In this document: piece by piece, positions 23,713 to 28,231 of the stretch | Numbering within the stretch: the stretch's first letter is position 1 | Layout of the letters: each line of letters opens with the position of its first letter | Assembly: GCA_964584545.1 (NCBI GenBank) | Contig: CAZPAG010000002.1 | Coordinates: 1 to 53,017 of the forward strand | Source of the DNA: an uncultured Candidatus Saccharibacteria bacterium | GTDB lineage: Bacteria; Patescibacteriota; Minisyncoccia; Minisyncoccales; CAZPAG01 | Direction: 5' to 3' | Length of the DNA stretch: 53,017 bases | The notes under the pieces: model-generated | Seen by the model: the letters and a program-made list of their open reading frames with translations, nothing else | Told to the model about the DNA's origin: nothing | Databases searched by the model: none | Program-made: the position numbers and the translations under genes

Positions 23713-24027
23713 TTACAGTTTTAACTCTTCGAGATCTTCTCCTTGAGAAACTCTTGCTCTCGGGGCTCTTCCGCCTTCCGGCTCTTCGATCTTCAAATTC
23801 ACGCGAGCGTGATTCTTAAGACCGACGATTCTGACCAAAGATCTTATAGATCTGGCAGTAGAACCGGCTTTGCCGATAATCTGACCCATGTCTTCTGGGT
23901 TTACTTTCAGAGAAAGCAATACTCCCATTTCATCAACCTTGCGGTCGATTTTGACATCTTCAGGATGATCGACAAGAGCTTTTATGATAAACTCAAGGAA
24001 ATCTTGATCGCTGGATGCTTTTGACAT
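23713..24027 (-). CDS. KH-domain RNA-binding protein (YlqC/UPF0109-like)
   Basis: DFLEFIIKALVDHPEDVKI...GQIIGKAGSTARSIRSLV (GxxG KH motif). Confidence 0.85.
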   Translation of the reverse strand: MSKASSDQDFLEFIIKALVDHPEDVKIDRKVDEMGVLLSLKVNPEDMGQIIGKAGSTARSIRSLVRIVGLKNHARVNLKIEEPEGGRAPRARVSQGEDLEELKL

Positions 24028-24131
24028 ATTCTTTCAGTATATATTCATTTCTAGTAGCCCGACCTTTCAGCGACTCTCTCAAACAATAATCAATAATGCG
24101 GGAGAATCTGATAAAGTTGCTACTAATTAAT

Positions 24132-24159
24132 ATTCTATTAATTATTGGGTCTTTGTCAA
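24132..24159 (-). promoter_or_regulatory. sigma70-type promoter candidate for the KH-protein gene
   Basis: Minus sense reads TTGACA - 16 nt - TAGAAT. It is preceded by a long imperfect hairpin at 24164-24225 (CCCAATAAG/CTTATTGGG outer stem, CAAGGAAAAC/GTTTCCTTG inner stem). Confidence 0.45.
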
Positions 24160-24269: not shown

Positions 24270-24470
24270 TTACTTTTCAGTAAGCTTTTCAAAAGCTTCT
24301 CTGAATACGGACTCATACCAAGGGCGGTAACAAACCAGTATCTGGTCTTCGCCAAGCACTAATTTTGTTGGCTTTACGCCAAGCTCTTTTTCGACTGCGT
24401 CGATGGCTTGGTTCATTTTATCGAAATCCGCCCTTTCTAAAGTAATTACCGCATCTGGTTGGATTCCCAT
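24270..24470 (-). CDS. hypothetical 66-aa protein (island gene)
   Basis: AGGAGG lies 7 nt upstream of the ATG. MGIQPDAVITLERADFDKMNQAIDAVEKELG.... I recognise no family. Confidence 0.55.
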   Translation of the reverse strand: MGIQPDAVITLERADFDKMNQAIDAVEKELGVKPTKLVLGEDQILVCYRPWYESVFREAFEKLTEK

Positions 24471-24630
24471 CCGTTTGCCTCCTTTGGATTCATTCTTTTC
24501 ATGACGCCGAACTGGCTATAATTTATTTGATTAACACTAATACGTCTAATCTACATAAAATAAATGTTTAATTATAACCACTTCGTCGCCATGAAATCCC
24601 ATATTTAATTTTTAAAATTATTAAGTAGAT

Positions 24631-24651
24631 TGTTGAGGCCAGGCCTCAACA
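24631..24651. repeat. island hairpin H1 (TGTTGAGG...CCTCAACA)
   Basis: tgttgaggcc-a-ggcctcaaca. It belongs to the same family as H2 at 25528-25550. Confidence 0.6.
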
Positions 24652-24690
24652 GATCCTCAAAGAATTCTCAAAGAGCCAATTATCCATTTA

Positions 24691-24801: not shown

Positions 24802-24987
24802 CTAGGCCCAGATTAAGGTTTTGACCTGCTTGAGATGCTCGACTGCTTGGTCGAATTGTCCGAGCCGAAAATGATGCCGAGCTTTCTTAAACTCGTCTGA
24901 CAGATAAAAATTTAACTTTTCATCTGCTTTTTCGATCTCTTTTTGAAAAAAATCTTCCAATTTTCTTTCCCTCTCTTCGGTCTTCAT
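24802..24987 (-). CDS. hypothetical 61-aa helical protein (single TPR-like hairpin?)
   Basis: AAGGAGG lies 4 nt upstream of the ATG. ...FKKARHHFRLGQFDQAVEHLKQV. Confidence 0.55.
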   Translation of the reverse strand: MKTEERERKLEDFFQKEIEKADEKLNFYLSDEFKKARHHFRLGQFDQAVEHLKQVKTLIWA

Positions 24988-25002
24988 GATACCTCCTTAA
25001 TT

Positions 25003-25088
25003 TACTCGCTTTTCATAGCGGCGAGATGCCCTCCTGCTGTAGAATGCTACCGAAGGACATTTCGCCGTTATGAAAACTATGAAAAGAA
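25003..25088 (-). repeat. 86-nt structured leader R1
   Basis: 84/86 identical to R2. Minus sense has a 10-bp stem CTTTTCATAG/CTATGAAAAG, an inner stem CGGCGA/TCGCCG and an apical hairpin GTAG-CATT-CTAC. It ends 8 nt before the SD. Confidence 0.8.
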
Positions 25089-25151
25089 TTTCTTTCTACT
25101 TCCACAAATTTCATCCTGAGCTTGTCGAATGGATAAAACCTCTGGAAGTAT

Positions 25152-25173
25152 GGGAAGTCGAAACCGACTTCCC
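25152..25173 (-). terminator. hairpin after the zinc-ribbon gene
   Basis: GGGAAGTCG-GTTT-CGACTTCCC (9 bp). No clear U-run follows. Confidence 0.4.
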
Positions 25174-25193
25174 CTCGAGTAGTGAGGAGGTGG

Positions 25194-25391
25194 CTACTGT
25201 TCAGGGCAACCCTGCCGATTACCGCAGTTACCGCAGAACTTGGCACCGATAGGGATTTCTACCCTACAGGCCTCGCATTCCTTGGTGCCGTACAACGGCT
25301 TTCCACATGTTCGACACGTAACCCTATTCTCGTGGTTAAAAGTCCCGCAGGCGACGCATTGGACAAACTTATCTGGCTTAATTTCAGGCAT
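25194..25391 (-). CDS. double zinc-ribbon protein (65 aa)
   Basis: Four CxxC pairs: CVAC..CRTC..CEAC..CGNC. AAGGAGG lies 8 nt upstream of ATG 25391. Confidence 0.65.
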   Translation of the reverse strand: MPEIKPDKFVQCVACGTFNHENRVTCRTCGKPLYGTKECEACRVEIPIGAKFCGNCGNRQGCPEQ

Positions 25392-25411
25392 GAACAATGC
25401 CTCCTTGCTAA

Positions 25412-25497
25412 TACTCGCTTTTCATAGCGGCGAGATGCCCTCCTGATGTAGAATACTACCGAAGGACATTTCGCCGTTATGAAAACTATGAAAAGAA
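25412..25497 (-). repeat. 86-nt structured leader R2
   Basis: See R1. The two differences fall in the apical loop and in an unpaired segment. Confidence 0.8.
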
Positions 25498-25527
25498 CTT
25501 TTTTACGCCTTAATTTATAAATATAGC

Positions 25528-25550
25528 TTGTTGAGGTCAATCCTCAACAA
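25528..25550. repeat. island hairpin H2
   Basis: TTGTTGAGG-tcaat-CCTCAACAA. Confidence 0.6.
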
Positions 25551-25687
25551 ATCTACAACGAATCTATTACTCTTATAAACTAAGGAGTAAAGGAGATGGA
25601 TGAATGCGTAGATTTTATTTCCACCCATCTCCTATAATGGACGAGATTTTTATAGCGGTGCTCATCCCACCGCTTCTCCCGAGGGTT

Positions 25688-25816
25688 TTAATTATCTTCT
25701 GGAGATTTTTTCCCCGCATCTTCTGCTGACTGACATACGGTGCCAGTTACCCCAGGGCAGAAGACCGGATTGGATCTTCGCCAGAAAACTGGCAGAACCT
25801 CTTTAAAATTTTCCAT
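25688..25816 (-). CDS. hypothetical 42-aa Cys-containing peptide
   Basis: GAGGAGG lies 8 nt upstream of ATG 25816. MENFKEVLPVFWRRSNPVFCPGVTGTVCQSAEDAGKKSPEDN. The longer ORF-track start is rejected. Confidence 0.45.
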   Translation of the reverse strand: MENFKEVLPVFWRRSNPVFCPGVTGTVCQSAEDAGKKSPEDN

Positions 25817-25991
25817 CTTATTTACCTCCTCAGAGACGATAGCACTCTCTGGTCTCTGAGAAGGTAAAATATTACTTAAAGAACTTTTTGAATTTCCCAT
25901 CTTTCAGCTCACAATCTCTTATGAGCTGGAATATAGGGGGAAGAGTCAAACTTCTCCCCGTTATGCTCCCGGTTTTACCCGGGAACCTGAT

Positions 25992-26140: not shown

Positions 26141-26169
26141 AAAAGGCAACTCCCTTGGAGAGAGTTGCC
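26141..26169 (-). terminator. attenuator-like terminator hairpin inside the leader
   Basis: Minus sense reads GGCAACTCTC-TCCAA-GGGAGTTGCC followed by TTTTCGGCTTT. Confidence 0.5.
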
Positions 26170-26187
26170 TAACGGCATATATTTCTT

Positions 26188-26231
26188 GAAAATATCGATA
26201 TCTTCTCTCCTGTTAAAATATCGACATTTTC
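26188..26231. promoter_or_regulatory. two 18-bp near-palindromic operator-like sites
   Basis: GAAAATATCGATATCTTC (26188-26205) and TAAAATATCGACATTTTC (26214-26231). They share 15/18 positions, their centres are 26 bp apart, and they lie downstream of the -10 element. Confidence 0.5.
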
Positions 26232-26251
26232 TCTCTCTCCTCTATGCCCGT

Positions 26252-26279
26252 ATTATAGCATATATCAAAGATTTGTCAA
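26252..26279 (-). promoter_or_regulatory. near-consensus sigma70 promoter with extended -10
   Basis: Minus sense reads TTGACA - 16 nt (ending in TGC) - TATAAT. Confidence 0.6.
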
Positions 26280-26348: not shown

Positions 26349-26777
26349 CTATTTCGGTTCTTCAGCCTTAACCTCTTCGCTTTTTACCTCCTCTGCCGGC
26401 TTTGCTTCCTCGGGAGTCGCTTCAATTTTTACCTCTTCTTCCGGTTTTTCCTCTACAGGCTTAGCTGCCACCGGAGCTGCTTCAACCGGCTTTGCTTCTG
26501 CTTTCTTCTTTGATTTCTTTTGTTTTGGTATCTTTTTCCCCTCAACTATTTTCTCTGAAACCAATAAATTAAAAACCGTGGGAGAAGGTTTAGCTCCAAC
26601 TGACATCCAGTATTTAATTCTGTCCTGCTTCAAAACCTTTTCTTTTGTGGTGGGATTCCAAAAACCAACCTCTTCCGTAAAGCGGCCCGCTCTTGTCGGA
26701 TTTCTTTTATCAGCAACAACTATTTTGAAAGAAGGCTGATTTGTTTTACCTACGCGAAAAAATCTGATTACTAACAT
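26349..26777 (-). CDS. rpsP: ribosomal protein S16 with Lys/Glu/Ala/Pro-rich C-terminal tail
   Basis: MLVIRFFRVGKTNQPSFKIVVADKRNPTRAGRFTEEVGFWNP. Confidence 0.95.
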   Translation of the reverse strand: MLVIRFFRVGKTNQPSFKIVVADKRNPTRAGRFTEEVGFWNPTTKEKVLKQDRIKYWMSVGAKPSPTVFNLLVSEKIVEGKKIPKQKKSKKKAEAKPVEAAPVAAKPVEEKPEEEVKIEATPEEAKPAEEVKSEEVKAEEPK

Positions 26778-27067: not shown

Positions 27068-27757
27068 TTACCATCCTTTTGTTTTTAATGCATTCTTGGC
27101 TGCTTCGACTTCTCCTTCCTGCTTTGAAGAGCCCTCTCCTTTAGCTATTAACGTTTTACCAAGAAATACGCCGATAATGAAGTTTTTGGCATGATCCGGC
27201 CCCCATTCTTCCAAAACCTGGTAAGTGGGGGTTATCCCTACTCTTTCCTGGGCCTCTTCCTGAAAAGCGGATTTGGCATCTCTGAAAAGCCCGTTTTCAA
27301 TAATTTTAGGCAATTCTGACAATAAATATTTTTCAATGAATTTCTGGCATTCTTTTATTCCTCTGTCCAGATACAGAGAGCCGATAAAAGCCTCTATAGT
27401 GTTGGCCAGGATATATTGGCGGGATTTGCCGGTTTCTTTCATCTCTCCTTTGGAAAGAAGCAAGAAATCGTTAAAGCCCGCTCCCTTTGCCACTTCGGCC
27501 AGCATTCTGGCGTTAACCAAGGCCGCTCTCCAGTTAGTTAACTCCCCTTCTGACTTATCGGGATATTTCTGATAAAGATACTGAGTAACTGCTAATTCCA
27601 GAACCGCGTCTCCCAAGAATTCCAACCTTTCGTTATTCTTTAAGTAAAAACCCGGATTCTCGTTCAGATAAGACCTGTGGCAAAAAGCCTGTATAAGCAA
27701 ATCTTTCTTTTTAAACTTTACTCCTAATTTTTTTTCTAATTTAGAAAAATCTATCAT
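27068..27757 (-). CDS. rnc: ribonuclease III
   Basis: NERLEFLGDAVLEL signature and a C-terminal dsRBD (...GEGSSKQEGEVEAAKNAL). Confidence 0.95.
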   Translation of the reverse strand: MIDFSKLEKKLGVKFKKKDLLIQAFCHRSYLNENPGFYLKNNERLEFLGDAVLELAVTQYLYQKYPDKSEGELTNWRAALVNARMLAEVAKGAGFNDFLLLSKGEMKETGKSRQYILANTIEAFIGSLYLDRGIKECQKFIEKYLLSELPKIIENGLFRDAKSAFQEEAQERVGITPTYQVLEEWGPDHAKNFIIGVFLGKTLIAKGEGSSKQEGEVEAAKNALKTKGW

Positions 27758-27796: not shown

Positions 27797-28231
27797 CTAT
27801 GGTTTATATTGTTTTTTCTCAATTTCCTTGTATACCGTCCCTAAAACTCCGTTTATGAACTTACCAGAGCTTTCCCCTCCGAAAGACTTTCCCAGTTCAA
27901 TAGCTTCGTTAATGGCTACTTTAGGAGGTACGGCTTCTTTATCTCCGTATATCAATTCGTACAGCCCTATTCTTAAAACATTCCTATCAACAATGCTTAT
28001 CTGGTCTAAGGGCCATTCGGGGGCCGACGTCTCAATAATCTTGTCTATGGATAAAAGATGTTCTACCGTGCCTGTCACCAGCTGCCAGACAAAACTCGGA
28101 TCTTCCAGACCGGGACCGAACTCCTTAAGGTTCTTCTCTACGGTCTTTTCTAAATCAACTTTTTTGCCGGAGAAATCCCATTCATATAGGCTTTGCATTG
28201 CGATTGAACGCGATAAATGCCTTGATGACAT
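27797..28231 (-). CDS. nusB: transcription antitermination factor NusB
   Basis: [18 protein letters not shown]...[12 protein letters not shown]...[26 protein letters not shown]. Confidence 0.9.

Follow-up and report, generated by a model that had tools for sequence, protein, structure and literature searches.

The window, by which we mean the whole 53,017-nt stretch of DNA that was analyzed, contains a gene cluster in the order nusB-rnc-(GIY-YIG)-rpsP-island-khpA-trmD, and synteny is kept with four other genomes (G096, G062, G073, and G065). The features of the island and its borders are collected in Table 1. A repeat search of the window identified a 93-nt repeat (25003-25095 and 25412-25504) with 96% identity. 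This pair, R1 and R2, had been described in the earlier note as structured leaders identical at 84 of 86 positions, and exactly two mismatches indeed fall within those 86 nt. Both lie where that note placed them when read in minus sense, one in the apical loop (C/U) and the other in an unpaired segment (AGCA/AUCA). Its statement that the ORFs behind R1 and R2 are unrelated also holds: the zinc ribbon is assigned to Pfam DZR (E 2e-8), and no family reaches the cut-off for the 61-aa protein. The 8-nt gap that it gave between each repeat and the AAGGAGG sequence was incorrect, as the distance is 4 nt for R1 and 5 nt for R2; the stem base of both hairpins ends ~10 nt 5' of this sequence. For the zinc-ribbon gene, ATG at 25391 (giving 65 aa and lying 8 nt past the SD) is a more likely start than TTG at 25397 (67 aa). 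The GC-rich hairpin that follows this gene was not scored as a terminator in the terminator scan.

The island contains further elements. R3, the boxA-like motif with its upstream promoter, and the placement of nusB and rnc in the cluster are additions to the earlier note. R3 resembles loci L090, L007, and L046, and its apex belongs to a 100-nt three-way class that is the commonest in the order; its fold reaches -35.6 kcal/mol in the sense strand versus -20.6 kcal/mol in the antisense strand. Palindrome D3a stands between R3 and its upstream boxA-like motifs and, like D3b, belongs to a family with 34 dispersed copies in the genome. Palindromes H1 and H2 were considered as cassette ends and rejected because they are members of this same dispersed family. 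The 3' arm of the module 0 hairpin contains the SD of a 42-aa ORF (25688-25816), and this hairpin is conserved in G073 (locus L075, 6572-6617).

Table 1. Features from nusB to khpA, given in positions of the window and listed in minus-strand order.
Feature	Position	Strand	Basis and remarks
nusB	27827..28213	-	PF01029, 118.9 bits, E 9.5e-35; first gene of the cluster
rnc (RNase III)	27068..27757	-	Pfam Ribonucleas_3_3, Ribonuclease_3, dsrm
rpsP (S16)	26349..26777	-	Pfam PF00886; upstream border of the island
Module 0	25821..25884	-	boxA-like GUUCUUUAAGUAA at 25872-25884, then a different hairpin at 25821-25868; CUGAAAGAUGGGAAA in front
Palindrome D3b	25529..25550	.	TGTTGAGG-N6-CCTCAACA; outside the leader family
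Predicted promoter TTGACC-17-TAAATT	25512..25540	-	promoter scan; would serve one transcript with R2, the zinc-ribbon gene, R1, and the 61-aa gene
boxA-like motif GUUCUUUUCAUAG of module R2	25486..25498	-	motif list and family alignment anchored on GYTCTTT
Hairpin R2	25420..25484	-	covariance-model match, 65 nt; 78.7 bits minus vs 57.4 plus (model R1)
Double-zinc-ribbon gene	25194..25391	-	Pfam DZR PF12773, E 2.2e-8; SD AAGGAGG at 25400-25406
GC-rich hairpin GGGAAGUCG-GUUU-CGACUUCCC	25152..25173	-	3' of the zinc-ribbon gene, without U tract; read from sequence
boxA-like motif AUUCUUUUCAUAG of module R1	25077..25089	-	A replaces G at position 1
Hairpin R1	25011..25075	-	covariance-model match, 65 nt; 78.6 bits minus vs 54.3 plus (model R1)
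61-aa helical ORFan	24802..24987	-	SD AAGGAGG at 24992-24998; no Pfam above cut-off
Two overlapping boxA-like motifs GCUCUUUGAGAAU, AUUCUUUGAGGAU	24653..24676	-	upstream of R3; read from sequence
Palindrome D3a	24630..24651	.	same dispersed family as D3b
Hairpin R3	24497..24596	-	third, diverged member; 57.9 bits (model R1)
66-aa ORFan behind R3	24270..24470	-	SD AAAGGAGG
Promoter of khpA, TTGACA-16-TAGAAT	24132..24159	-	promoter scan
khpA (KH-domain protein)	23713..24027	-	Pfam PF13083; downstream border of the island

Copies and distribution of the leader

The 20-nt core pattern of R1 and R2 has a chance expectation of 0 in the window, and the whole 654-kb genome contains only these two close copies. 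Within the order, a covariance model of the hairpin matched 45 of 401 genomes (37 of 246 genera), and the same layout was present on eight further metagenome contigs. When 401 genomes sampled from the whole phylum were scanned, the source genome and one other member of the order were the only ones matched, so that no match came from other orders. Two scans of viral contigs returned no true match. Their sole hit lies inside a coding sequence without the motif and was taken as chance, and a phage origin was therefore rejected. A loose palindrome scan of genome contigs (CATAGCGGCG...CGCCGCTATG) recovered mostly an unrelated repeat of Kiritimatiellae MAGs, together with five CPR loci that are real. 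The Rfam comparison proposed in the earlier note yielded no Rfam 15 family for the repeat, either at the gathering threshold or at E <=10. Four tRNAs and nothing else passed in the window, the best score on the repeat being that of SSRC34_1 (25.7 bits versus a threshold of 64). No literature on the leader family was found.

At half or more of the family loci, the host locus is a variable island between nusB-rnc-rpsP and khpA-trmD; rpsP and/or khpA-trmD lie at most 1.5 kb away at 15 of 30 loci. The genes behind the leader differ in nearly every genome, and ten downstream proteins had no Pfam family except for one weak STIV_B116-like match. A connection of the family with target genes of retroelements (DGRs) was considered and not seen. 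Given that the downstream gene changes from genome to genome, the tie between leader and zinc-ribbon protein entertained in the earlier note is not supported. The orientation of the leader to these genes is fixed: an SD-led ORF begins within 260 nt downstream in 38 of 41 copies (median 50 nt), versus 14 of 40 on the opposite strand.

We consider it very unlikely that the copies are selfish or neutral DNA, that is, a MITE/REP-like small hairpin repeat or a local duplication with no regulatory role. Copies within a genome are closer to each other than copies from different genomes, as for R1/R2 (96%) and the near-identical pairs in G189 and G062, and other hairpin repeats have been inserted into the module in G026 and G055, both of which would fit this explanation. 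However, low copy number (two close and one diverged copy here, 1-4 clustered copies per genome elsewhere, at one locus) and fixed orientation to the genes led us to reject a dispersed REP- or MITE-like repeat, and no target-site duplications were seen around the module. Moreover, when the core of R1/R2 is compared with a copy from another family, identity is 95%, whereas the flanking trmD, khpA, rpsP, and rnc genes of that genome reach only 72-84%. The confinement of G·U pairs to one strand, discussed below, is also unfavorable to this explanation. Integron attC sites are recognized by their R''/R' core sites (RYYYAAC ... GTTRRRY) and by extrahelical bases in the strand that folds. An attC assignment was rejected because both hallmarks are absent and the arms (UCAUAAC / GCUAUGA) have symmetric mismatches that are not bulged.

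Fold, covariation, and strand of the hairpin

The rod that the earlier note had drawn on minus-sense RNA was recovered for both copies (-34.7 and -36.0 kcal/mol; z -4.1 and -4.4). The outer stem drawn there, CUUUUCAUAG/CUAUGAAAAG, differs from the pairing that is conserved: the proximal UUUCAUAACGGCG arm is paired by RNAfold and in all homologues, and the distal CUUUUCAUAG makes up the 3' half of the boxA-like motif GUUCUUUUCAUAG upstream. In hairpin R2, an A·C mismatch separates the conserved base of 13 bp from an upper stem of 9 bp, which is capped by the tip GUAG-UAUU-CUAC. Family hairpins range from 53 to 137 nt, with a conserved stem and a tip that varies in sequence and length. Their 13-bp base (CAUAGCGGCGA / UCGCCGCUAUG) is conserved in sequence and nearly invariant over 37 genera, the internal loop, in which A·C is joined by G·G, A·G, or A-U, is conserved, and the upper stem above it covaries. 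The stem spans 22-24 bp with a conserved 1x1 or 2x2 internal loop.

The covariation analysis likewise favors a conserved fold. In the homologue alignment, compensatory changes on both sides occur at 14 of 22 pairs, and 89.7% of cells are paired, versus 78% in shuffles and 33-53% in slid registers. The covariation score of 0.412 (0.187 for shuffles) was reached by 0 of 500 shuffles, and the non-pair at columns 15/40 is retained in 32 of 38 sequences. The earlier note had named neutral local duplication as the outcome that would undo its proposal; instead, the block evolves non-neutrally, and its stem is kept by compensatory changes. R1 and R2 are copies of a conserved folded leader, rather than a private duplication. 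The view in that note that the two genes share a structured cis-regulatory leader, formed in gene sense, is supported by these compensatory pairs, by a core more conserved than its flanks, and by the fixed orientation.

Strand preference is clear across the family. The sense RNA has the more stable fold in 37 of 41 copies (sums of -1604 kcal/mol for sense and -1312 kcal/mol for antisense), and G·U pairs are confined to the gene-sense strand, an asymmetry that indicates a single-strand fold. A cis-antisense RNA templated by the repeat, made from the plus strand and carrying CCCUCCUG, had also been suggested, and we find it the least probable of the explanations considered. The two copies in the window do fold slightly better on the plus strand (-37.4 and -35.9 versus -34.7 and -36.0 kcal/mol; z -6.3 versus -4.1 to -4.4), but the family-wide preference runs the other way, no plus-strand promoter is predicted beside R1/R2, and the anti-SD-like apex is restricted to one class. 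The same restriction bears on the SD-like CAGGAGGG of the apex, for which a role is not supported, since other apex classes have UGUAGCC or GUGUUC in its place. Two further readings of the hairpin were rejected. A leader peptide does not fit, as the NUG-opened frames of the 5' arm stop at differing places in each member and no ORF is conserved. For a riboswitch-like switch, pairing of the 3' arm with a downstream AUAGCGG is possible in ~10 members, and over the family as a whole the energy of this duplex does not surpass that of shuffled sequence (mean z -0.46, with no member under -2).

The geometry of the stem suggests that the element could be an RNase III processing or stability element that acts without Nus factors, cutting the island transcript into single-gene mRNAs and leaving a stabilizing stem at the new ends, in the manner of the T7 early-mRNA sites and the lambda N leader. 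This explanation is compatible with the one that we prefer below; standing alone, it is possible, if unlikely. A duplex of at least ~20 bp and an rnc gene in the genome make the hairpin a plausible substrate (cleavage itself being putative). In addition to the internal loop, every cistron is preceded by one hairpin, and rnc lies in the same cluster, two genes upstream. In G091, the hairpin comes immediately after a promoter (TTGACA-17-TATACT), boxA being absent, which indicates that the hairpin can stand alone at a 5' end. RNase III substrates, however, usually keep shape rather than sequence, whereas here the base is nearly invariant, and the GYUCUUU motif at fixed spacing is left unexplained.

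Conservation of both stem sequence and internal loop might instead reflect a translation or stability operator, in which a sequence-specific RNA-binding protein of the core genome (KhpA, whose gene is the next one downstream of the island, a ribosomal protein, or NusA) would bind the base and loop and set expression of the island genes. The minimal islands of G044 and G026 have the common apex class between rpsP and khpA, which would agree with such an operator, as would the ~10-nt distance from hairpin end to SD in the window. We nevertheless judge it improbable: over the family the hairpin-SD distance varies from 1 to 255 nt, no candidate protein covaries with the element, and khpA has its own promoter and a different leader.

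The boxA-like motif and its predicted promoters

The sequence GYTCTTT is present within 60 nt upstream of the hairpin at 35 of 42 sites, its commonest spacing being 14-17 nt. It starts at this distance in 22 of the 35 copies, leaving 1-4 nt between the 13-nt motif and the stem. At each of the seven core positions, 30-35 of the 35 sites agree with the consensus (position 2 being counted as Y), and positions 8-12 are A-rich and variable. GYTCTTT corresponds to the first seven letters of the gammaproteobacterial boxA consensus, GYTCTTTAANA (PMC5725501). In the window, the motif reads GTTCTTTTCATAG in R2 and ATTCTTTTCATAG in R1. Seven of the 42 copies have no motif within 60 nt; R3 is among them and has its boxA-like motifs ~80 nt upstream instead.

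The R2 motif starts ~7 nt past the predicted transcription start. The -35 hexamer of this promoter sits in the loop of palindrome D3b, and G096 and G023 share the conserved promoter region TTATaAATTAAGGCGTAAAAnAGTTCTTT. For the R1 module, the promoter scan predicted no separate promoter, so the R1 motif is probably internal to the transcript. In G018, a strong predicted promoter (TTGACA-17-TGcTATACT) lies upstream of the motif and places it at about +12, which suggests that the motif is transcribed there.

An explanation at the level of DNA would make GYTCTTT part of a promoter, covering spacer and -10 element, with the palindrome as the operator of a dimeric repressor. In roughly half of the copies, the sequence spanning the motif also fits TTGAGA/TTAAGG-17-TATAAA, which would make the motif promoter spacer and put the start of the hairpin at ~+1. 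The hexamers, however, are only ~50% conserved, versus 86-100% for the supposed spacer, and the geometry misfits in G018 and in the class with 37-38-nt spacers. Furthermore, a dimer operator needs no self-complementary, covarying center of variable length (9-93 nt), and the G·U asymmetry points to a single-strand fold. Only a very slight probability attaches to such DNA-level control.

The motif resembles that of rRNA leaders. In eight genomes of the order, rRNA leaders carry a related motif, G[AU][AU]CNUUGA[AC]AAU; the 16S leader motifs of relatives (GAUCUUUGAAAAU, GAACCUUGAAAAU, and similar) are related to, and not identical with, the island motif. The rRNA leader motif of G073 is preceded by GAUGGGAAA, with GGGAA-like runs in several others, and a similar run stands before the motif in module 0 of the window (CUGAAAGAUGGGAAA) and in several other island copies. 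The organism's own 16S leader candidate, GAACAUUGAAAAA, on which the comparison with its own rRNA rests because the 16S-23S spacer and 23S rRNA are absent from the assembly, has 3 mismatches to the island motif in the first 7 positions. Among the features expected of a boxA, the core matches the gammaproteobacterial consensus and nusB is in the cluster, and the organism's own rRNA leader motif is not identical.

A proposed nut-like reading and known systems

Overall, each module consists of an rrn-type boxA (GYUCUUU...), a few nucleotides, a hairpin, and an SD-led small accessory gene, and the copies share sense-strand RNA structure, motif, orientation, and gene context. With about as much confidence as doubt, we propose that one Patescibacteria order has a conserved cis-acting RNA module in its 5' leaders, represented here by R1, R2, and the diverged R3, and that this module is nut-like, loading NusB/S10, with the hairpin as the site of a second protein or of RNase III. 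The Nus binding and regulatory outcome that we infer could proceed as follows. Transcription of R2 would start at the predicted promoter, just ahead of boxA; NusB-S10 would bind boxA of the nascent RNA and remain tethered to RNA polymerase. The adjacent hairpin, like lambda boxB or a structured N leader, may serve as a dock for a second factor, as an RNase III substrate, or both. The modified polymerase would then read through the hairpin-rich island (zinc-ribbon gene, R1, and 61-aa gene), with a site for reloading or processing at every cistron. A further or alternative possibility is that the hairpin, together with the loop formed between boxA and the polymerase, controls how ribosomes reach the SD, in the way known from suhB and lambda N. 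No Rho RNA-binding domain was found in the genome, so the classical anti-Rho role is inapplicable, and the terminator scan detected no clear intrinsic terminators inside the R2-R1 unit; both observations count against the proposal.

Nus-factor control outside rRNA is known in few cases: suhB, CRISPR leaders, and lambdoid phages. New here is a conserved, covarying RNA partner of boxA that is repeated before variable small genes in Rho-less bacteria. For boxA complexes in these bacteria, this suggests a role other than Rho blocking, such as faster elongation, translation coupling or gating, or processing. Tentatively, and with more doubt than confidence, we suggest a portable rRNA-style module in a Rho-less CPR order, in which boxA loads NusB/S10 and a sequence-specific hairpin recruits a further partner or RNase III; an N-independent, nut-like elongation/processing complex would be rebuilt before every island cistron, which may represent a new processive-antitermination or leader RNA class. 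In CPR genomes, the leader is also a marker for an island of small-protein genes that is hypervariable and occupies a fixed site in the chromosome, which helps ORFan annotation there, and it is a candidate family for RNA catalogues. Given the compact module of ~90 nt with NusB, S10, and RNase III, recombinant production is possible even though the hosts are uncultivated.

Phage T7 early mRNAs contain RNase III sites (R1.1 type), hairpins of about two turns with an internal loop between successive cistrons. The leader family is similar in hairpin geometry and in position between cistrons; unlike the T7 sites, it keeps its stem sequence from genus to genus and is accompanied by a boxA motif, and its cleavage is putative. 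In lambda, the boxB hairpin spans 15 nt and has a conserved, purine-rich loop to which N protein binds, whereas here the hairpin is far longer, its stem is conserved, and its tip varies. In the lambda nutL / N leader, which continues into a structured, RNase III-sensitive stretch ahead of the N gene, as here, boxA, a short spacer, a hairpin, and an SD follow in the same order, with boxA and hairpin within ~10 nt of each other. Nus factors and RNase III act there as host proteins, and nusB and rnc stand in the cluster here. NutL with N represses N translation over a highly structured spacer, with Wilson 2002 cited on RNase III (PMC5725501). In contrast to the lambda nut site, no N-like gene recurs in the islands, and the modules are chromosomal, lying between the core genes rpsP and khpA, with no true match on viral contigs.

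In the suhB 5' UTR of E. coli and Salmonella, Nus factors acting through boxA are able either to repress translation or to keep transcription from terminating (Baniulyte et al., 2017; PMC5725501). The present leader is similar in having a GYUCUUU-type boxA in the 5' UTR of a protein-coding gene, near the SD, and Nus-factor genes nearby. It differs in the large conserved hairpin behind the motif, repeated before each cistron of a variable island, in a host without the Rho RNA-binding domain, and in motif positions 8-11, which depart from AANA; NusB/S10 binding here would follow by analogy. The rrn operon leader combines boxB-boxA-boxC with an RNase III processing stem and is the site of the rrn antitermination complex. 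Compared with it, this element has a local hairpin and no leader-trailer helix around rRNA, has small protein genes as cargo, and places its hairpin 3' rather than 5' of boxA. It nonetheless shares with that leader a long duplex after boxA and a motif resembling the rRNA-leader motif of the order, including the GAUGGGAAA that precedes it in G073.

R1, R2 and the wider hairpin family

A repeat search of the window returned a direct repeat pair at 25003-25095 and 25412-25504 (93 nt, 96% identity), R1 and R2, with a 20-nt core whose chance expectation in the window is 0. The near-identity claimed in the earlier note is confirmed, with exactly two differences inside its 86 nt, and both copies fold as rods. 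The claimed gap of 8 nt to the AAGGAGG needs correction, as the repeats stop 4-5 nt short of it. R2 precedes a double zinc ribbon gene (Pfam DZR, E 2e-8) and R1 a 61-aa ORFan; by BLAST, they are the only close copies in the organism's own genome (654 kb, 36 contigs).

A 63-nt core was found by BLAST in other families among 401 genomes of the same order, often paired, including a 95% identical copy in G096, a Nealsonbacteria MAG. Further named MAGs from a pattern scan were Wildermuthbacteria, Nealsonbacteria and Paceibacterota. A covariance model built on the hairpin (model R1) matched 45 of the 401 genomes, covering 37 of the order's 246 genera. Each matching genome has 1-4 copies, mostly on a single contig. 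The model also detected a third, diverged copy in the window (R3; see table). Eight metagenome contigs hold additional copies in an identical layout. Across 401 genomes sampled from the whole phylum, the model matched nothing beyond the order; viral contigs gave no true match, and no Rfam 15 family fits the repeats.

A selfish repeat is one rival explanation for these copies. A same-strand, Shine-Dalgarno (SD)-led ORF of at least 30 aa lies within 260 nt downstream at 38/41 sites (median 50 nt), compared with 14/40 in the opposite orientation. These ORFs encode small proteins that, with few exceptions, are unrelated to one another (zinc ribbons, small membrane proteins, ORFans); Pfam assigned no family to ten of them, one weak match excepted. 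No retroelement target genes were seen behind the family hairpins.

Fold, covariation and strand

Structure statistics were computed on 38 distinct sense-strand sequences. Standard pairs occupy 89.7% of cells; shuffling the columns gives 78% and sliding the register 33-53%. Both-sided changes occur at 14 of 22 pairs, and the covariation score of 0.412 (0.187 in shuffles) was reached by none of 500 shuffles. The hairpin base comprises 13 bp of almost invariant sequence (CAUAGCGGCGA / UCGCCGCUAUG), a conserved pairing that differs from the outer stem proposed previously. Above it are two conserved non-pair positions, one A·C in 32/38 sequences and its neighbour G·G, A·G or A-U, followed by a freely covarying upper stem. 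The apex falls into three classes: the short tip of R1 and R2, a ~100-nt three-way form that is commonest and includes R3, and a third with the sequence GGACAUUAG....

All genes of the region are on the minus strand. G·U and U·G pairs are numerous and fall on the gene-sense strand. Sense RNA is the stabler fold in 37 of 41 copies (totals -1604 vs -1312 kcal/mol). R1 and R2 are among the 4 exceptions because a 5'-arm G-to-A change creates a second A·C mismatch, which also explains why the plus strand appeared attractive in the earlier note, where an antisense RNA, the rival reading on this point, was raised. We conclude that the leader RNA family to which R1 and R2 belong is real and conserved, lies on the sense strand and is absent from Rfam.

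In about ten members (e.g. L159, L179, L156 copy 2, L201), the 5'-arm sequence (AAAUAGCGG) recurs directly behind the 3' arm. This second copy could pair alternatively with the 3' arm, and the two co-vary in G018; family-wide, such pairing was not significant (mean z -0.46).

An upstream boxA-like motif

When sites are anchored on the hairpin, GYTCTTT occurs within 60 nt upstream at 35/42, its start mostly 14-17 nt ahead. Each of the seven core positions has the consensus base in 30-35 of the 35 sites, with an A-rich tract behind. The motif reads GUUCUUUUCAUAG in R2 and AUUCUUUUCAUAG in R1; in R3, GCUCUUUGAGAAU lies ~80 nt upstream, separated from the hairpin by an inserted palindrome. Judged by sequence, it is the core of boxA, the NusB-S10 (NusE) binding site, for which PMC5725501 gives GYTCTTTAANA as the consensus.

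One rival explanation places a promoter here, combined with a DNA operator: -35-like and -10-like hexamers are readable across the motif. Their conservation of only ~50%, the position of a G018 promoter (TTGACA-17-TGcTATACT) upstream of the motif, and the lack of a fitting -10 element in the 37-38-nt-spacer class favour a signal acting in RNA over a promoter spacer. The predicted R2 promoter (TTGACC-17-TAAATT, 25540-25512) puts the motif at ~+7. The scan predicted no promoter for R1, which probably lies inside the R2 transcript.

A related motif, G[AU][AU]CNUUGA[AC]AAU, is present in the 16S leaders of eight genomes, this one and seven relatives. GAUGGGAAA precedes it in the G073 16S leader, with GGGAA-like runs in several others, and also precedes the motif in module 0 (an island element with another hairpin) and in several copies in other genomes. 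Of the first 7 positions, 3 differ between the organism's own 16S-leader motif and the island motif; the leader and island motifs are similar, not identical.

Upstream of 16S (C7:44290-44450 in this genome; L186 in G062), a strong promoter leads to a tiny Lys-rich ORF (MAKKKAKKKKCGGGCE and MAKKKKRGRK, respectively); an intrinsic terminator separates this ORF from the rRNA-leader boxA-like motif further down. Separately, a ~70-nt hairpin repeat (CCCCGUAGUG...CUACUAUCGGGG) sits between boxA motif and family hairpin in L164 (G026) and L172 (G055), flanked in L164 by duplicated CTTCA, suggesting invasion of the leader by a mobile hairpin element. The palindrome TGTTGAGG-N5/6-CCTCAACA has 34 copies in the 654-kb genome (≤1 mismatch per arm) and is a dispersed REP-like or operator-like family. 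One copy is just upstream of the promoter region ahead of the 16S gene; in another, the -35 hexamer of the predicted R2 promoter falls within the loop.

The island and a proposed nut-like reading

Features of the region and dispersed palindrome copies
Feature	Position	Strand	Remarks
nusB	28213-27827	minus	heads cluster
rnc	27757-27068	minus	second in order
GIY-YIG gene		minus	between rnc and rpsP
rpsP	26777-26349	minus	
Island			2.3 kb, between rpsP and khpA
Module 0	25821-25884	minus	boxA-like GUUCUUUAAGUAA (25884); different 22-bp hairpin
Palindrome	25529-25550		at R2 promoter
Palindrome	24630-24651		
R3	24497-24596	minus	covariance model, 57.9 bits; 66-aa ORF downstream
khpA	24027-23713	minus	then trmD
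Palindrome	C7:44248		contig of own genome

The element occupies the same site, between rnc-rpsP and khpA-trmD, in G096, G062, G073 and G065, and the rpsP and/or khpA-trmD border genes are within 1.5 kb at 15 of 30 loci. A 42-aa ORF with Cys codons has its SD in the 3' arm of the module 0 hairpin; this hairpin is kept in G073 and the preceding CUGAAAGAUGGGAAA in G065.

Several other features were observed nearby. Immediately behind rpsP (26141-26279, minus) is a consensus promoter (TTGACA-16-TGcTATAAT), a piece kept in G062 and G065. Next come twin palindromes, then a canonical intrinsic terminator (GGCAACUCUCUCC..GGGAGUUGCC UUUU) and a 35-aa hydrophobic ORF. Within 25588-25729 (plus) is a short divergent ORF whose IFIAV...PP core is also encoded at the corresponding place in G096; the SD of this ORF (AAGGAGTAAAGGAG) is covered by a hairpin (25588-25602 / 25622-25636). 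At 24040-24159 (minus), khpA is preceded by a separate promoter (TTGACA-16-TAGAAT) and a leader in which UAGUAGC ... GCUGAAAGGUCGGGCUACUA form a long-range stem. The stem is also present in G044 and G026, so this leader is a candidate second conserved leader RNA. In contrast to the island genes, khpA has no strong SD.

A full-text literature search returned nothing on boxA or antitermination in Patescibacteria/CPR. NusB-S10 would be loaded at the boxA of R1 and R2; the hairpin may dock a second factor, serve RNase III as a target, or combine the two roles. Rival readings of the same hairpin are that it acts solely in RNase III processing or RNA stability, or that it is an operator for an RNA-binding protein. 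Since the organism's genome has no Rho RNA-binding domain, any benefit of NusB-S10 loading must differ from anti-Rho action.

With boxA first, then after a few nucleotides a protein-sized hairpin and finally an SD, the family leader parallels lambda nutL with the N leader, and also the suhB 5' UTR. In these systems, boxA-bound Nus factors keep the RNA looped to RNA polymerase, resulting in termination resistance or SD blockage, modulated by RNase III (PMC5725501). From this parallel in anatomy, we infer that R1 and R2 are putative nut-like leaders that load NusB-S10, and that the family would represent boxA/nut-type leaders in a new form.
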